Program-made: the position numbers and the translations under genes
DNA from: a virus
Taxonomy: Duplodnaviria; Caudoviricetes
Length of the DNA: 33,942 nt
IMG/VR virus record: IMGVR_UViG_3300025875_000075
Coordinates: 1-33,942 of that record
Reading direction: 5' to 3' (one strand)
Shown here: piece after piece, positions 7,946-27,001 of the stretch
How the letters are laid out: each line of letters begins with the position of its first letter
How positions within the stretch are numbered: position 1 is the first letter of the stretch
Notes under the pieces: generated by a model
Told to the model about the DNA's origin: nothing
Database searches by the model: none
The model's input: the letters and a program-made list of their open reading frames with translations, nothing else

Positions 7946-8090
7946 CACCCCCCGATAGTGGGGGTTACGAGGTGCCCCTACTTAGACATAACCCCAAGTC
8001 GAGAGCAGTCACGATAGGGGGAGACACATACACGCCCCCACCCCCAGCCCCCTTCCCCTGGTCCGTAGGACCAGGGAGGGAAGGGGGAGC

Positions 8091-8375
8091 GTGATGGAGA
8101 CAGACAGCATGAGCACGAGATGCAGGCACAAGGGCTCGACGGTGCTCACGACCCTGGCCGGGTACGAGGTGCGGCTCGACACCGAGCCCCTCGATCCCCT
8201 GGCCGAGCTGGTGGCAGCAGTGGCTGGCCGTCGCACCTACACCGCCTATGCCAGCGGTGGCGCGTCCTACCGTGACGGCCAGACCATCCGGGCCCGCCCC
8301 GCCGGCACCCGTCCACGGGAGACCGTCCGGGTGCAGCACCAGTGTCCGCCGTCCATCACCCCGGGAGCGTCATGA
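8091..8375 (+). CDS. Hypothetical protein (first gene of the packaging operon)
   Basis: Purine-rich RBS (GGGAGGGAAGGGGGAG); C...VQHQC; ATGA overlap with the next gene. Confidence 0.7.
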   Translation: MMETDSMSTRCRHKGSTVLTTLAGYEVRLDTEPLDPLAELVAAVAGRRTYTAYASGGASYRDGQTIRARPAGTRPRETVRVQHQCPPSITPGAS

Positions 8376-10261
8376 CCGCGATCGACCTGGCCGCCCTCGC
8401 CTCGACCCTCGGCGTCGCCCTCGACGGGATGGTGCACGGCTGCGGATGCGGCCATGTGCACCCGCACGAGCCCTCGGCGATCACCGCTGATCCCTACGCC
8501 TGGCGGACCATCCGGCAGAACGTGCTCGCCCGCGATGGCCGGCGGTGCCAGGTGTGGCAGACCGGGACGGGCGTCGTGGCAGCGGACGGCAGCGGGGAGG
8601 AGGTGTGCGGGGCGACCGCCACCATCGCCGGGCACAAGTTGGCCCGCGGTCGGGGCGGATGCGACCGGCCGCGCAACTTGCGAGCCGAGTGCAAGCCGCA
8701 CAGCGACTCGGACTCGGGCCGGCTCACCCGCGAGGAACGGGACGCGCTCAACCTCGCACGCGCCCTCGTCGCCCGTGACGGGGCTCTCGACGGGGCCGTT
8801 CTCGCCTCTCAGCCTGTGGATAACCGGTCGGTTTTTCCACAGGGCGTCGCTCACGGTGACCCCGGCTCTGGGAAAATCTCTCTCTCAGCGTCGCGGGCCG
8901 ACGATCGCGAGGGCGTCGTGCGCAGTGACCTGCGGATCGTCGGCGACCGGGGCACGCACGCCGACGGATCGTCAGCGGGCCGACGCGGGTCAGATGGAAG
9001 CTCGGCGAGCCCCGGGGGTGTGATCGACCCGAGCACGTTCGCCGTCCCCGGCCCCGACTCCGAGGTGTGGGACGCCGCCCCGTGGCTGGACAAGCTCCGC
9101 AAGGTGCCCGAGGGGGCGGTCTGGCCCCGGCTCATGACCTACCCCCACCCGCGGGCGGTGGGCACGTACGGTCCCGAGCTGCTCGAGGTGCACGGGCGCA
9201 CCACGAAGGGTGGCCGGCTGCGGTGGTGGCAGCGGCTCGCCGCGTACCGCATTCTCGAGCACGACGCCGATGGCGTGCTCGTGTGGGCCGAGTTCATCGA
9301 GTCGACGGCCCGTCAGCTCGGCAAGAGCGTCGGTTTGCGGGCTCTGGCCTGGCATCGGGTGCTCAAAGGCCCTCAGCGGTGGGGCGAGCAGCTCGTGCTC
9401 CACACCGGCCGCGAGCTCGGCATCGTTCGGGAGGTCATGCTGCCGGCGTGGGCGTGGGCCGAGCGCAACGGGCTGGAGGCGTCGCGGAACAATCTCAACC
9501 CTGGGATCTCTACCGAGCCGCACATGACGGGCTCTCGGTGGGTGATCCGGGCCAAGAACGCCGCCTATGGGCTTGGTCCAGGGCTCGCGGTGGTCGACGA
9601 GGCGTGGGACGTGGCTGGCGTGACGGTCGACGAGGCGATCGAGCCGACGCTGGTCGAGCAGCCCTCCCATCAGCTCGGCATGTTCTCCACCGCGCACCGC
9701 AAGGCGACGGGGCTCGTGCTTGAGCGCCGGGCGGTGATGATCGCCGAGATCGTGCGTCCGACCCACCGATTGCTGCTCGAGTGGTCCGCGCCGGCCGATA
9801 TCGACCGTTCCGACCCGCGGGCGTGGCGGGCAGCGTCGCCGCACTGGTCGCCGAACCGCGAGCGGCTGGTGCGCTCGGCGCTGGCGAAGGTGCTCCGCGG
9901 CGAGAGCGTCGACCCGGAGGAACCGGACCCGATCGCTTCGTTCGACGCTCAGTGGCTCAACCGGTGGCCGAACGTCATCACGATCAAGGCCAAGACCCTT
10001 GACGAGCCCCTGATCGCCGGTACCGAGCGCCTCGAGGGGGGTCTGCGGTCGCTGGCGTGGGATTCCTGCCTCGACCCGGATGCGACGCCGGCTCCCGACT
10101 CGCCGGTCGTGCTCGCGCTGGAGGACGACCTCGGCGACGGCGCCACTGCGGCGGCCGCCGCGCTCTGCCCCGATGGCCGGGTCGTGGCCGGCGGGTGGAC
10201 TGGTGCGAGGACACCGCCGACGGCGCCGACGACGCGATTCTGCTGGTCGGGGCGTCGATGA
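8372..10261 (+). CDS. terL: HNH endonuclease domain fused to terminase large subunit (C-terminus continues in the -1 frame to 10530)
   Basis: HNH: WRTIRQNVLARDGRRCQ...C...AGHKLARGRGG...NLRAECKPH. Terminase ATPase: LRWWQ, Walker A ARQLGKS, Walker B LAVVDEAW, coupling motif FSTAH. No stop between them. Confidence 0.85.
   Translation: MTAIDLAALASTLGVALDGMVHGCGCGHVHPHEPSAITADPYAWRTIRQNVLARDGRRCQVWQTGTGVVAADGSGEEVCGATATIAGHKLARGRGGCDRPRNLRAECKPHSDSDSGRLTREERDALNLARALVARDGALDGAVLASQPVDNRSVFPQGVAHGDPGSGKISLSASRADDREGVVRSDLRIVGDRGTHADGSSAGRRGSDGSSASPGGVIDPSTFAVPGPDSEVWDAAPWLDKLRKVPEGAVWPRLMTYPHPRAVGTYGPELLEVHGRTTKGGRLRWWQRLAAYRILEHDADGVLVWAEFIESTARQLGKSVGLRALAWHRVLKGPQRWGEQLVLHTGRELGIVREVMLPAWAWAERNGLEASRNNLNPGISTEPHMTGSRWVIRAKNAAYGLGPGLAVVDEAWDVAGVTVDEAIEPTLVEQPSHQLGMFSTAHRKATGLVLERRAVMIAEIVRPTHRLLLEWSAPADIDRSDPRAWRAASPHWSPNRERLVRSALAKVLRGESVDPEEPDPIASFDAQWLNRWPNVITIKAKTLDEPLIAGTERLEGGLRSLAWDSCLDPDATPAPDSPVVLALEDDLGDGATAAAAALCPDGRVVAGGWTGARTPPTAPTTRFCWSGRR
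8813..8843. promoter_or_regulatory. Inverted pair of DnaA-box-like 9-mers
   Basis: TGTGGATAA (8815-8823) and TTTTCCACA (8833-8841) within CCTGTGGA...TCCACAGG. Confidence 0.5.
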
Positions 10262-10530
10262 TCGACGACGCCGAGCTTGAGGCGGTCGACATCGCCCTCG
10301 AGCCGGTGGGCCGCGCTGAGACCGCGGTCGCGCTGCCGCTGTTCCGTGAGCTGGTGCGCCTTGGGCACGTCGCGCATGACGGCGATGAGGACACCTCCGA
10401 CGCGGTGCTCGGGGCTCGTGTTCGCCCCGGCGCCGGCGGGTCATCCATACTGCTGACCGGGAACGAGTCGACGAGCCTCGTACGGTGCGTGATGTGGGCC
10501 GTGCAGCGGGCACACCGCGACCGGACGTGA
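10195..10530 (+). CDS. Frameshifted C-terminal segment of the terminase nuclease domain
   Basis: VDWCEDTADG...ILLVGASM...ALPLFRELVRLGHVAHDG...SLVRCVMWAV reads as real protein. The original frame turns to Pro/Thr/Arg-rich sequence after VVAGGW. Confidence 0.7.
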   Translation: MDWCEDTADGADDAILLVGASMIDDAELEAVDIALEPVGRAETAVALPLFRELVRLGHVAHDGDEDTSDAVLGARVRPGAGGSSILLTGNESTSLVRCVMWAVQRAHRDRT

Positions 10531-10543
10531 TGAGGGGGCCCCT

Positions 10544-10948
10544 GTGGACCGATTGAGCGACGACGAGCTCGCCGGCAGGCACCCGGGGGTGACCGAGCTG
10601 CTCTCGTTCTTCGACGCCGGACACCTGCCCGACGATCTGCGGGTCGTGTCCGAGCCGTGTGGCGAGCTGGCGCACCACCTCGTCGCCACCCTGCCCGACG
10701 GGCCGGAGCTGACCACCGGGCTGCGGAAGCTGCTCGAGGCCAAGGATTGCGCCGTGCGGCAGGCGATCCGAGCCCGGATCTCGCGTTCGGCGCCGTGGGT
10801 GGCCCCGAACGCCCGCGGCGTGGCCGGCGCGGACATCGAGCGTGAGGGTGACGATCCGCGCGACGGCGACCTTGACGGCGGTGACGACGAGGTGCTCGAC
10901 GTGGCGACGCACGGCGACCCGACCGCGACGCAGGTGTTTCGGCGATGA
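10544..10948 (+). CDS. Helical-hairpin protein (GPELTTGLRKLLEAKDCAVR family), possible Acb2/Tad1-like nucleotide sponge
   Basis: GAGGGGG RBS; FFDAGHLP..L..VS.P..ELA...RKLLEAKDCAVR pattern and an acidic tail. The function is inference. Confidence 0.6.
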   Translation: MDRLSDDELAGRHPGVTELLSFFDAGHLPDDLRVVSEPCGELAHHLVATLPDGPELTTGLRKLLEAKDCAVRQAIRARISRSAPWVAPNARGVAGADIEREGDDPRDGDLDGGDDEVLDVATHGDPTATQVFRR

Positions 10949-11307
10949 TCGACCCCGTGCAGCGGCTCGATGGCATCGCCCGTGTGTGCCACGAGGCGAA
11001 CCGCGCCTGGCAGATCGTCACCGGCGACCCGGTGGTCTCGCCGTCGTGGGACGAGGCGTCCGTCGACCAGCGGATGAGTGCCCGAGACGGGGTGCAGGTC
11101 GCTCTTGCGGGCGCCACTCCCGAGCAACTCCACGAGTCGTGGACGCGCAACAAGCTGGTGAACGGGTGGACGTTCGGTGCGGTGAAGGACGAGGCCGCGA
11201 AGACTCACCCCTGCCTCGTGCCGTACGACGAGCTGCCGGCCGAGCAGCGGGCGAAGGACGCGCTGTTCGGTGCCATCGTGACCGCGCTCGGGCGGGCGGC
11301 CTCGTGA
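10945..11307 (+). CDS. RyR (ryanodine receptor repeat) domain protein
   Basis: IARVCHEANRAW, HESW...GWTFGAVKDEAAKTHPCLVPYDELP.EQRAKD; GW.xG..KD...K.HP.LVPY..L is the RyR signature. Confidence 0.9.
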   Translation: MIDPVQRLDGIARVCHEANRAWQIVTGDPVVSPSWDEASVDQRMSARDGVQVALAGATPEQLHESWTRNKLVNGWTFGAVKDEAAKTHPCLVPYDELPAEQRAKDALFGAIVTALGRAAS

Positions 11308-11480
11308 TCGAGCCCGCACCGCCCGTTCCGCTGGTCGAGGTGCTCGTCGTCGAGCCCGCACCGGCTGTCGAGCCCCTCGCCTGCACCGCGGCGACGAACG
11401 GTGGGCACCTCCCGTGCCGCCTTGTCGCCGGCCATTCGGGGCTGCACCAGCTCGCTGACGGAACGGTGTTCGCCCCGTGA
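11304..11480 (+). CDS. Small protein with a Cys/His mini-domain
   Basis: GTGA overlaps at both ends; ACTAATNGGHLPCRLVAGHSGLH. Confidence 0.6.
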   Translation: MIEPAPPVPLVEVLVVEPAPAVEPLACTAATNGGHLPCRLVAGHSGLHQLADGTVFAP

Positions 11481-12832
11481 CCGAGCCCCGCGAGCCGTTC
11501 ACGATCGTCGACCGGCGCGGGGTGGCCATCGAGCGGACGGCGTTCCCCCGCGACCCCAGCCTTGTCGAGCCGAGCAACGGGCCCGCGGGCGCCGTCGGCC
11601 CCGACTCGCCGGCCACGCTCTACGGTGCGACCGCCGACGCCGAGCCGGTGATCGTCGATGGTGACGAGTTCGACGCCGCGCTGCCTGGCCCCCGGCTCAC
11701 CCCGACCCCGTGGGCCGGGTGGCCCTCGCAGTGGCAACCCGCGTGGGGCAACGGCGGGGGCGGTGCCGGGCTCGGTGGGCTCGGCCGGCAGGTCTCGACG
11801 GTGTTCTCGTGCACCGCGCTCAACGCGAACGCCCTCGCCTCGATGCCCGTCTCGCTCACCGAGGCCGGGCGCCCGCTGGACCCGCTGCTCTACGAGTGGA
11901 CGGAGAATCCTGAGCCCCGGCTCTACTCGGGCATCGATGAGTTCCTCACGCAGGCGGTCGTCTCGATCCTGACCCGGGGCGATCTCTACATCGCCCCGAC
12001 GCATTGGGAGTGGGAGACGCTGCTTCCCGATCGATTCATGGTCGTCGACCCTGATCGGGTGACGTGCCGGTTCGCCCTGGACGGGGCGACGCGCGACTAC
12101 TGGATCAACGGCGAGCCCCTCATGCCCGGGGATCTGCTGCACACCCGCTACATGAGCGCGGCGGGCTGGCCGACCGGGCTCTCGCCGTTGCAGGCCGCCG
12201 CGGGTAACCTCCGGTCGGCTGGGGCGCTTGAGCAGTACGGCGCGCAGATCGCCGAGTCGGGTGGCATCCCCTGGGGGACGCTCACCACCGACGAGCGTCT
12301 CACCCGGCGGCAGCGGGCGATTGCCCGGCAGGAGTGGATCGAGGCGCAGGCCAACCGCATGGGCGGGCCCGCGATCTTTGGGCAGGGGCTCAAGCTCGAC
12401 ACGCTGTCGATCAACCCCAAGGACATGGCGCTGCTCGACCTGCGGGTGTTCGACGAGCAGCGGATCGCGGCAGCGTTCGGGGTTCCGCCGTTCCTCATCG
12501 GCCTCCCCCAGCCCGAGGGGCTCACCTACGCGAACGCCACCTCGATGTACGACGCGCACTGGCGGCAGATGCTCCGGCCGCTGGCGCGGAAGATCATGGG
12601 CGCGCTCTCGTCGTGGGCGCTGCCGCGGGGGCAGCGGGTGCACCTCAATGCGGGCGACTACGTGCAGCCCTCGCTTCCTGAGCGCACCACCGCCTACAAG
12701 GAGATGCACGATGCCGGTGCGCTCACGGTCGACGAGTGGCGGGCGCTCGAGGGGCTGCCCCCGCTCACTGCCGGCCAGCGTGCCAGCAGGGCGCTCGCCG
12801 AGCAGACCGCCGACTCGGCGGTGACCCAGTGA
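11477..12832 (+). CDS. Portal protein (HK97 family)
   Basis: VFSCTALNANALASMP, DLLHTR...GLSPL, INPKDMALLDLR...IAAAFGVPPFLIG, LTVDEWRALEGLPP. Confidence 0.95.
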   Translation: MTEPREPFTIVDRRGVAIERTAFPRDPSLVEPSNGPAGAVGPDSPATLYGATADAEPVIVDGDEFDAALPGPRLTPTPWAGWPSQWQPAWGNGGGGAGLGGLGRQVSTVFSCTALNANALASMPVSLTEAGRPLDPLLYEWTENPEPRLYSGIDEFLTQAVVSILTRGDLYIAPTHWEWETLLPDRFMVVDPDRVTCRFALDGATRDYWINGEPLMPGDLLHTRYMSAAGWPTGLSPLQAAAGNLRSAGALEQYGAQIAESGGIPWGTLTTDERLTRRQRAIARQEWIEAQANRMGGPAIFGQGLKLDTLSINPKDMALLDLRVFDEQRIAAAFGVPPFLIGLPQPEGLTYANATSMYDAHWRQMLRPLARKIMGALSSWALPRGQRVHLNAGDYVQPSLPERTTAYKEMHDAGALTVDEWRALEGLPPLTAGQRASRALAEQTADSAVTQ

Positions 12833-13967: not shown

Positions 13968-14010
13968 TGTCGGGGTTTGTCTTGAGTTGTCGGGGTTCTC
14001 TGCCGATGAT
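13968..14010 (+). promoter_or_regulatory. Promoter (probably leaderless) overlaid with 10-bp-phased TGTC repeats
   Basis: TTGAGT-N17-GATGAT, 6 nt before ATG 14017. TGTCGGGGTT/TGTCTTGAGT/TGTCGGGGTT at 13968/13978/13988. Confidence 0.55.
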
Positions 14011-14016
14011 GAAGGC

Positions 14017-14307
14017 ATGACCACCCCCCGCGTTACCGCCGCAACGCTCGCGGCTGCCGCCACGCGCCTCGCCGGCACGGTCGTCCTCGACCTCGCTGAC
14101 CTGACCGTCGGGCCCGCGACCTACCTGCCCCGACTCGAGGCGTTCGCCGAGATCGGGGACCCGACCGAGATCCTCGGCGACGACGACGGCACGCTCGTTG
14201 TGCTCGTCCAGCCGGGCGTCGCTCGCGACCTCATCGCCGAGCACGGCACGCCCGGCCGGGCCGCTGCCGTCGTGAACCGTGAGCTCCGCTCGGTGTGGTC
14301 GGCATGA
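14017..14307 (+). CDS. Hypothetical protein (moron gene 1)
   Basis: ATG directly after a promoter; ATGA overlap with the next gene. Confidence 0.7.
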   Translation: MTTPRVTAATLAAAATRLAGTVVLDLADLTVGPATYLPRLEAFAEIGDPTEILGDDDGTLVVLVQPGVARDLIAEHGTPGRAAAVVNRELRSVWSA

Positions 14308-15032
14308 GCGCGCTCTCGCTGGTCTCGTCCTGGGGCGGGGACGCGATGCCCGACGGCGTGACCATCGACCGGCCGGTTGACGCGACGGTCTACTCGTCGC
14401 GGCAGACCGCCGAGCGCCGTGCCGCCCGCATCCGGGCCAACGTGGCCGAGCTGGTCGGCGACCTCGTGGACGCCTGGCGCGAGCACGACGACGAGGCGCT
14501 CGGGTTCGTCTCGTTCGCCGAGTTCACCGCGTGGCTGTTCGGCGACGTGAGCCGGGTGTCGATCCCGGTCGAGGCCCGCCGCGAGCTGGTGGCAGGCATG
14601 ACCGAGCGCGACGGGCTGTCGGTGCGGAAGATCGCCGACGCCCTCGGTGTGAGCAAGAGCCTCGTCGCCGACGACCGCAAGATCATGCTCCACCCGCAGG
14701 CGCTCGACGACGCCCGGATCATCGACGCCGAGGTCGTCGAGCCGCTCGACCCGTTCCGCGGGCTGTCGGCCCGGTGGGAGGTGCTGGCCCGCGTCGCCGC
14801 GCAGGCCGAGCGCGGGCTCACCTCGGTCGAGCTGGACGCCGAGCTCGACGCGCCGCTCGGCACCGCGACCGGCTCACTGTCCAAGCTGGCCGCCCGTGGG
14901 CTCATTGAGATCGGGTCGCTCGACGAGGCTCGGGCGAACCGGCGCCCCTACCGGGTGACCGAGCCCGGCCGGGCCCGGCTGGCCGAGCTGCTGACCGCCC
15001 GCGACGCCGCCGAGGGCGACGTCGAGGGGTGA
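14304..15032 (+). CDS. Double-HTH DNA-binding protein (HTH plus winged helix)
   Basis: GLSVRKIADALGVSKSLVADD; C-terminal GLTSVELDAEL...TATGSLSKLAARGLI...PYRVTEPGR. Confidence 0.8.
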   Translation: MSALSLVSSWGGDAMPDGVTIDRPVDATVYSSRQTAERRAARIRANVAELVGDLVDAWREHDDEALGFVSFAEFTAWLFGDVSRVSIPVEARRELVAGMTERDGLSVRKIADALGVSKSLVADDRKIMLHPQALDDARIIDAEVVEPLDPFRGLSARWEVLARVAAQAERGLTSVELDAELDAPLGTATGSLSKLAARGLIEIGSLDEARANRRPYRVTEPGRARLAELLTARDAAEGDVEG

Positions 15033-25996: not shown

Positions 25997-27001
25997 ATGA
26001 CCGAGACCCGTGATCCGCTCGAGCCCGTCGAGGGCCGCCCGTGCCCGGTGTGCGGACTGCCTGACCCGGAACACGACTGGGATGCCCACGACCGCCGCGG
26101 GGCGCCGGCCGAGCCGATCTTCGAGGGGCGTCTTGGTGCGGCGCTGCCGAACATGCTGCTGCGATCGAGCACCCGCGGCCGGGCCGAGGTGCGCGTGCTG
26201 GCGCTGCACTCGACCGAGGGCATCCTGCGGGCCCGCGACCTGCGGGCGTGGGCGAGCTGGCCCGGCTCGAGCCACGCGAGCGCCGACTCGACCGGCGCGC
26301 TGCTCGGGCCCGCGGACGGGTTCGTGCCCTACCACCTGGCCGCGTGGACGCTCCGCTCGGGCAACCCGTGGTCGGAGAACCTCGAGCTCTGCGGGTTCGC
26401 CCGCTGGACGCGGGCCGAGTGGCTCGCCCGCCCGCTGCTGCTGGACGCCGCTGCCCGGTGGCTGGCCGAGCGCCACCTCGCCCGGCCGAAGATCCCGCTG
26501 GTGAAGATCACCGCCGCGCAGTACCGGGCAGGGGCGTTCGGGGTCATCGACCACGACGACCATACCGACGGCTATGCCGACGGCACGCACTACGACGTGG
26601 GGGAGAACTTCCCCTGGGACATCGTGATCCCCGCCGCTCGCATCCACGCGGGCGCCGAGACCGGAGGACTGGACATGGACGAAGCGATCAAGCTGCTCAT
26701 CGAGATCGTCGGTGAGCTGCGAGGTAACGCGGCGGGCAAGCTACGGAGTGGCTGGCCGGGGCGACGGTTCGGCAACGGGACGACGACGGCGGCGAAGGGG
26801 AACGGCACCGTCGTCGACTACGTGCTCGAGGTGGACCGTGAGCTGAACTCGCGGATCGACGTGCTCACCCGCAAGGGGGCGCCGACCACTCGTCCGGCGC
26901 TGGACACCCTGTTCGGCCACGTGGTGAGCTGCCGCGCCGAGGTGCAGCTCATGCGCGCCGAGCTGGCCGATCTCGCGGCGAAGATCGACACGGCGAAGTG
27001 A
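25997..27001 (+). CDS. Endolysin, N-acetylmuramoyl-L-alanine amidase (Amidase_2)
   Basis: LHSTEG, SSH, AAWT..GN, ELCG, GVIDH and HYDVG.NFPWD motifs. Confidence 0.88.
   Translation: MTETRDPLEPVEGRPCPVCGLPDPEHDWDAHDRRGAPAEPIFEGRLGAALPNMLLRSSTRGRAEVRVLALHSTEGILRARDLRAWASWPGSSHASADSTGALLGPADGFVPYHLAAWTLRSGNPWSENLELCGFARWTRAEWLARPLLLDAAARWLAERHLARPKIPLVKITAAQYRAGAFGVIDHDDHTDGYADGTHYDVGENFPWDIVIPAARIHAGAETGGLDMDEAIKLLIEIVGELRGNAAGKLRSGWPGRRFGNGTTTAAKGNGTVVDYVLEVDRELNSRIDVLTRKGAPTTRPALDTLFGHVVSCRAEVQLMRAELADLAAKIDTAK

Follow-up and report, generated by a model that had tools for sequence, protein, structure and literature searches.

A putative two-sponge cassette between the terminase and portal genes of a high-GC phage

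Genes in the terminase-portal gap

The window is the whole stretch of DNA analyzed, a virus record of 33,942 bases that has direct terminal repeats and a CheckV completeness estimate of only 35%. Homologues of helicase, primase, terminase, portal, prohead protease, capsid, tape measure, and endolysin are encoded in it. The G+C content is approximately 72% in the region of the two genes of main interest, herein designated genes A and B. The features of the locus are as follows.

8342..10261, + strand: N-terminal portion of the large terminase, fused at its N-terminus to an HNH domain (flank; phrog_9, E 6.5e-18; phrog_333, E 2.3e-7)
10057..10530, + strand: putative C-terminal remainder of the terminase, read in a second frame (flank; GC3 frame switch at 10140-10200)
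10532-10538, + strand: Shine-Dalgarno-like sequence GAGGGGG, 5 nt upstream of the gene A start
10544-10948, + strand: gene A, 134 aa, GTG start
10544..10783, + strand: conserved core of gene A, residues 1-80; all-helical domain (phrog_5120/1761), putative remote relative of the Acb2/Tad1 hairpin, homodimer predicted
10784..10948, + strand: C-terminal tail of gene A, 54 aa with 13 D/E, outside the family profile (the PHROG match stops at residue 80)
10945-11307, + strand: gene B, 120 aa; stand-alone RyR (Repeat12) domain protein, assigned by sequence to the RyDEP / RyR Tad family
11304-11480, + strand: gene C, orphan ORF of 58 aa (two Cys, three His) that overlaps the gene B stop and the portal start
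11477..12832, + strand: portal (flank; PF04860, E 7e-52)

Genes A and B were confirmed as real. Every junction from gene A to the portal gene is a four-base stop-start overlap (ATGA for A/B, GTGA for both B/C and C/portal), and these overlaps suggest that A, B, C, and the portal gene are co-transcribed. The GC3 values (A, 0.89; B, 0.90; C, 0.83; portal, 0.92; A core, 0.93) span a range that resembles that of structural genes. A search of 8000-11600 found no consensus promoter or terminator. A first-pass annotation of this DNA had described two coupled genes interrupting the terminase-portal pair. The ATGA overlap and the nature of the flanks, TerL by phrog_9 and portal by PF04860, agreed with that description; the ORF at 11304-11480 had been missed, and therefore three genes, not two, occupy the gap. 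Gene C had no family match in profile searches and no match among 50,697 phage records. Genes A and B showed no relation to each other in sequence comparison.

The terminase aligned with TerL of relatives in the 8342..10261 frame up to approximately 10183. The frame breaks near 10185-10190, and the C-terminus ends at 10530 in another frame; the C-terminal piece (10057..10530) had no family match in Pfam/PHROG profile searches. The break is either an assembly error or a real shift, and the two are indistinguishable here because 9968-10204 is covered by no listed cognate contig.

The RyR-domain protein of gene B

Gene B matched PF02026 with an E-value of 9.4e-14 and 51.9 bits, above the curated cut-off of 27.4, as expected from the first-pass description of a clear stand-alone RyR protein. 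It also matched PDB 35tm_A (E 4.7e-12) over residues 15-111; 35tm was not retrieved in a search with the N-terminal half of gene B. Judged from the protein length, 35tm is probably DyoEdafos gp78. The gp78 protein of this mycobacteriophage, named RyDEP, is reported to cleave 2'/3'-cADPR via H75 and D117 and to bind the ligand through W78 and H100 (PMC13232231). RyR Tad, the gp68 protein of Pectobacterium phage vB_PatP_CB1, is described as a 43 nM sponge with the ligand residues H129, W132, K147, H154, K170, and D171 (bioRxiv 10.64898/2026.06.04.730250). A link between phage RyR proteins and ADPR-type signals, which had been mentioned at first pass, is thus on record in these reports of cADPR binders and degraders, and gene B keeps the ligand residues.

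All six gp68 residues are found in register in gene B, as H63, W66, K81, H88, K104, and D105, and five of them (H63, W66, H88, K104, and D105) are invariant across 86 of 86 aligned relatives. H75, W78, H100, and D117 of RyDEP are kept as well, H75/D117 corresponding to H63/D105. The equivalent of RyDEP Q54 is aligner-dependent, being Q42, S45, or A46. Identity of gene B is 44-48% to gp68 vs 28-33% to RyDEP (44% vs 28% in one alignment), and gene B agrees with gp68 in 28 columns and with RyDEP in 11. Two differences from gp68 were noted: gp68 has an N-terminal domain, which gene B lacks, and gene B, known here from sequence alone, sits in the packaging operon of a high-GC phage.

By its sequence, gene B is a further member of the published RyDEP / RyR Tad anti-Thoeris family, and it is likely to bind the Thoeris signals 3'/2'-cADPR. 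Whether it would trap or cleave them bears on the first-pass proposal, a sponge next to a binder or degrader. Were gene B a glycosidase of the RyDEP type, converting cADPR to ADPR, the pair would be a sponge plus a degrader. The catalytic His/Asp dyad kept as H63/D105 is consistent with this, and the approximately 72% G+C together with actinophage relatives may indicate an actinobacterial host, as for DyoEdafos. The same dyad is present in non-cleaving sponges, including gp68, and gene B is more distant from RyDEP than from the sponge type, with the greater part of the discriminating columns siding with gp68. Six of the eight RyDEP homologues reported as tested in PMC13232231 bound cADPR, two did not, and none of the eight cleaved it. 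The RyDEP Q54 match varies with the aligner. Furthermore, genes of the NARP1 type (Adps-, Namat-, and NMNAT-like; PF14572, PF01467, and PF04095) gave no profile match in this genome, at the CheckV completeness of 35%. Because of the ligand residues, the closeness to gp68, and the absence of a NARP1-type profile match, gene B was assigned to the known family and most likely to its sponge type. We regard a sponge as quite probable for gene B and a glycosidase as unlikely. Two preprints already cover this family, and by 2026 such a protein is ordinary; the useful lead of the pair is gene A.

Gene A and the Acb2/Tad1 hairpin

Residues 8-80 of gene A matched phrog_5120 (E 2e-28) and phrog_1761, both entries without an assigned function. 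Only these residues are conserved; the 54-aa acidic tail, which is probably flexible, is not, and most relatives are 67-100 aa long. No Pfam match was obtained for gene A at E 1, Sequestin (PF21825), Acb4 (PF13876), and Tad2 (PF11195) included, and PDB sequence searches gave nothing significant. A haemoglobin match in the PDB search was rejected as weak. A weak profile match to the phage protein Gp22 (PDB 8jaj; E 0.006), which dropped to E 0.11 with a broader profile, was also rejected. The family comprises 4,231 clusters at 50% identity in an exhaustive search (E 1e-10), and 954 of 960 candidates from a word-indexed search belong to it. Members occur in 368 of 50,697 phage records, cultured phages included, from Mycobacterium, Gordonia, Vibrio, Acinetobacter, Erwinia, and roseobacters. 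In size the family roughly equals the Acb2 set on record, and it spans phages of Actinobacteria and Proteobacteria.

AlphaFold2 modelled the gene A core as all-helical with a pLDDT of 94 (helices 14-21, 30-49, and 54-79). A homodimer was predicted with a score of 0.73 vs 0.00 for the best of three controls; among solved structures, 20 of 30 pairs and 1 of 23 monomers reach the mark used. The runs agreed 100%, the partner pLDDT was at least 85, and the predicted interface is antiparallel, with E55 close to the partner's R72. Resemblance to hairpin dimers of solved structure may account for this score. The Acb2/Tad1 sponges are homo-oligomers, hexamers built from three dimers, and have their pockets at the interfaces. 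Gene A is thus predicted to be a helical hairpin with a short N-terminal helix that forms an antiparallel homodimer. Tandem duplications of the domain were seen in 9 of 150 library matches.

Conservation across 155 domains of the exhaustive search is 92-99% at F23, H27, L28, E55, R61, K62, E65, K67, D68, and R72; the figures are somewhat inflated because the 155 domains are the best-scoring matches. The near-invariant polar set (H27, E55, R61, K62, E65, K67, D68, and R72) is entirely intact in gene A. Position 25 is Ala in gene A where 126 of 155 relatives have Y/F/W. This substitution and the 54-aa acidic tail would fit a sponge family whose copy here is decaying or re-purposed, so that gene B alone would be active. 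Against such decay stand the other near-invariant residues, which are intact, and the rank of gene A among the best matches of its own family (E 1.8e-31). Moreover, the close relatives P0002 and P0004 share the Ala, P0004 also has a similar tail, and the core GC3 is 0.93. We consider a decaying copy improbable.

The first-pass annotation had noted, by eye, a likeness of the hairpin motif at residues 54-72 to the Acb2/Tad1 sponges. In part, this likeness was supported. With PF24729, none of 112 members of the gene A family matched at E 10, with positive controls at 63-68 bits. Profile-profile alignment (hhalign) of the family with 11 PF24729 members gave a probability of 91-92% over approximately 60 columns with pairwise E-values of 7e-7 to 1.2e-6, and a score of 36 compared with at most 15 in 40 column shuffles. 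The 11 members were collected for this comparison; one is a clear relative of PaMx33 Acb2, and their profile finds Acb2, Acb2_43, Vs.4, and Tad1 in the PDB. Against 80 FTYH-type hairpins alone, the alignment was weaker (probability 21% and 71%), still above reversed controls, and the family HMM scored these hairpins at a median of 11.4 bits vs -0.2 for reversed sequences. In the ESM Atlas feature search, PF24729 is present on some of the members in 27 of the 30 nearest clusters (14-62% in the top three), at a recognition value of 2224, below the 2300 mark; a feature search without PF24729 gave no named match. One ESM Atlas PF24729 model reached a TM of 0.63 over 50 residues against gene A, below the bar, and Foldseek with the gene A model gave no match in the PDB at E 0.001. 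The 50 matches listed by VIA-align were helical bundles of a generic kind (best Z 7.6) and included no sponge, an outcome that is uninformative for so small a hairpin.

The pocket residues were then compared. The ligand residues of Acb2 are Y11, K26, R67, and T74, and these also vary among true Acb2 homologues (PMC10312549). They map to A25, S36, P54, and R61 of gene A, S36 being present in 137 of 155 relatives. Hence, the residues for cyclic dinucleotides (Y11 and K26) and for cyclic trinucleotides (R67 and T74) are all four absent, and cGAMP or cA3 binding by gene A is not to be assumed. Acb2_43 is described as binding 3'cADPR via H5, K19, and K55 (bioRxiv 10.1101/2025.08.24.671296). By manual mapping, K55 corresponds to R72 of gene A (ungapped register), H5 to H27 (within one position, in a gapped loop), and K19 to S36.

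Gene A thus shares with Acb2/Tad1 (PF24729; PaMx33 Acb2 8H2J, T4 Vs.4 7UQ2, Acb2_43 9PTQ, and Tad1 7UAV) a short two-helix hairpin with approximately 60 columns in register, self-association, which is predicted for gene A, and the habit of adjoining RyR genes. It differs in an extra N-terminal R-H-P helix, its own invariant K67 and D68, and a likeness below Pfam detection. The family appears to be a remote homologue of the Acb2/Tad1 hairpin rather than a member of the Pfam family, since the E-values are pairwise. It would keep the scaffold and part of one pocket, with the rest rebuilt.

The company of gene A and the role of the pair

Fusions of the gene A domain were surveyed in the best 120 of 712 long relatives. 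Nine of the 120 are fused to known sponge families: RyR in three (both domain orders), Sequestin in three, Acb4 in one, and Tad2 in two. Other partners in the same 120 are WDGH (7), prohead protease (10, of which 9 with capsid), and ClpP (1), and most partners are unannotated. Since the domain is also joined to unrelated partners such as prohead protease and ClpP, its fusion is promiscuous. The domain stands N-terminal on the prohead protease-capsid polyproteins (P0136, P0140, P0141, P0145, P0152, P0154, P0164, and P0178-P0180; the named ones are from Rhodococcus) and at the N-terminus of a ClpP protease in P0125. An unannotated domain of approximately 100 aa lies ahead of the A domain in 13 of the 120 long matches (P0194 and 12 relatives). 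A look-alike of this domain, judged by eye, is at L100:2660-2977 between A and RyR; HMM search did not confirm it.

Sequestin (PF21825) provides a precedent for discovery. It was discovered through fusion to known sponges (Tal et al., bioRxiv 10.1101/2025.07.12.664507). Like the gene A family, it is a small helical family of obscure function with Tad2/Acb4 fusions and antiparallel dimers, which are predicted for gene A. It differs in having no sequence match to gene A, and the A family is itself fused to it. The fusions seen here are of the kind that led to Sequestin, yet the A family is without the known ligand residues. A 2026 review lists seven sponge families (PMC13712596), and TadIV-1 is described in PMC13243611. 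In literature searches by words, not by sequence, neither the A family nor the WDGH domain was named in any paper returned.

Genomic neighbours were compared in 80 A loci and 80 RyR loci. After duplicate removal, 75 A loci (five dropped) and 76 RyR loci (four dropped), one of the latter without a called neighbour, were left; neighbour counts are lower bounds because genes were called by a crude longest-ORF rule. A RyR gene lies beside the gene A family in 1 of the 80 A loci (IMG/VR, within 3 kb), in the same order as here. From the RyR side, the A family is found within 1 kb in 4 of the 76 distinct loci (80 before duplicates), one being a terminase-[RyR-A fusion], compared with a chance expectation of 0.08-0.8 loci, a rough figure in which host bias is not controlled. 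Canonical PF24729 genes directly adjoin RyR in 6 of the 80 RyR loci and Acb4 in 3, PF24729 having been searched in whole records for 50 of the 80 loci only. Tad2, Sequestin, and WDGH occur as neighbours of the A family once each among 75 loci. We interpret the A-B pair as loose and recurrent, one case of a wider mix-and-match sponge neighbourhood. A fixed module does not agree with a RyR gene at only 1 of 80 A loci. The sponge half of the first-pass proposal gained from the fusions of the A family to four sponge families, and the degrader half lost, gene B being likelier a sponge than a degrader.

The A family lies between terminase and portal in three loci (L024, L060, and L075). On a single contig of a relative, in the one run that contains this DNA, the terminase end leads to the portal start without a match to A, B, or C (33-nt side); on another single contig of the same run (63-nt side), a RyR match precedes the portal. 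The terminase-portal gap behaves as a swappable insertion site. These positions also bear on the proposal that gene A serves in virion assembly or as a packaged head protein and that its proximity to sponges reflects nothing but shared late-operon hot spots. Late-module genes flank the A family in 18 of 75 distinct loci, nine of them with terminase, portal, or protease; a family member is among the head genes of DumpsterDude; and the N-terminal fusions in 10 of 120 long matches, where the partner is prohead protease and in most cases protease-capsid, together with the weak Gp22 match, would fit a virion role. However, the positions of the family vary widely, with lysis, tail, replication, and genome-end sites all represented. 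The same bias is seen for RyR, whose anti-defence role is proven and which adjoins terminase or portal in 10 of 75 loci, and the relative's contig on the 33-nt side runs from terminase to portal without A, B, or C. The RPP1 homologue gp29 is absent from the 13 virion proteins reported in PMC4193335, with gp28, gp31, and gp32 present; this is weak evidence, because gel-band MS can miss small proteins. A virion protein is accordingly held to be an unlikely reading of gene A. The first-pass annotation had tied the pair to terminase, portal, protease, and capsid as triggers of signalling defences, and the site may have been chosen to counter such triggers. Escape mutants in prohead protease and capsid vertex are treated in the review PMC13728456; high late expression would by itself suffice to explain the siting in a late operon.

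A different anti-defence role of gene A, beside a sponge B, was given somewhat more weight and is still judged a minor prospect. The hairpin would then bind a host protein, for instance a TIR or CD-NTase sensor, or act on a nucleotide catalytically. The known ligand residues of Acb2 are missing, H/E/D/K/R residues are near-invariant, and the core is net acidic (14 D/E vs 9 K/R), whereas sponge pockets are reported as usually basic (Tal et al., bioRxiv 10.1101/2025.07.12.664507). RyDEP also provides a precedent, as sponge folds can turn into enzymes according to PMC13232231. On the other side, a ligand trap that assembles with itself would agree with the tandem duplications and with in-frame fusion to four sponge families, and a host partner was suggested by no analysis.

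From its remote homology and its company, gene A is rather likely to be a sponge. For the pair, we lean, by a little over even chances, toward an accessory cassette in the late packaging operon that would supply two different sponges for immune-signal nucleotides, gene B likely for cADPR and gene A for another signal. Both proteins would be made in large amounts from the late transcript, which fits because stoichiometric sponges need abundance. Dimers of B would trap cADPR and so keep the Thoeris effector off. Oligomers of A would trap a ligand at protomer interfaces via H27 and R72, the counterparts of Acb2_43 H5 and K55. The best guess for the ligand is an ADPR-type signal.

A more specific version, to which we give tentative credence at most, takes the gene A family as an undescribed sponge family, a sister of Acb2/Tad1 with a pocket rebuilt for a signal beyond those screened so far. 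If so, the family would be a bait for finding a new second messenger, and the protease-capsid fusions would represent a sponge made in step with every capsid subunit in some phages. Sponges have already been used to capture and identify unknown immune signals (bioRxiv 10.1101/2025.08.24.671296); because sponges can capture signals, the small protein of gene A could reveal a new signal or a new specificity.

Several minor observations were made. Fusions of the WDGH domain (PF25311) with the A domain are present in P0213, P0223, P0224, P0231, P0232, P0234, and P0238, twice together with Tad2; WDGH also precedes Sequestin in L069, and L046 is also among the WDGH cases. WDGH is a candidate for a further domain of the sponge network. 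The RyR proteins encoded at L119:3319-3525 and L154:3331-3555 bear unannotated extensions at the C-terminus (68 and 74 aa, respectively), and the former follows a terminase. In the window itself, a holin-like gene at 2316-2729 (region 1909-2729) adjoins the replication genes, far from the endolysin at 25997-27001, and two non-structural ORFs lie between the prohead protease and capsid genes at 13987-15032, one encoding a double helix-turn-helix protein (MarR_2, E 3.6e-6).
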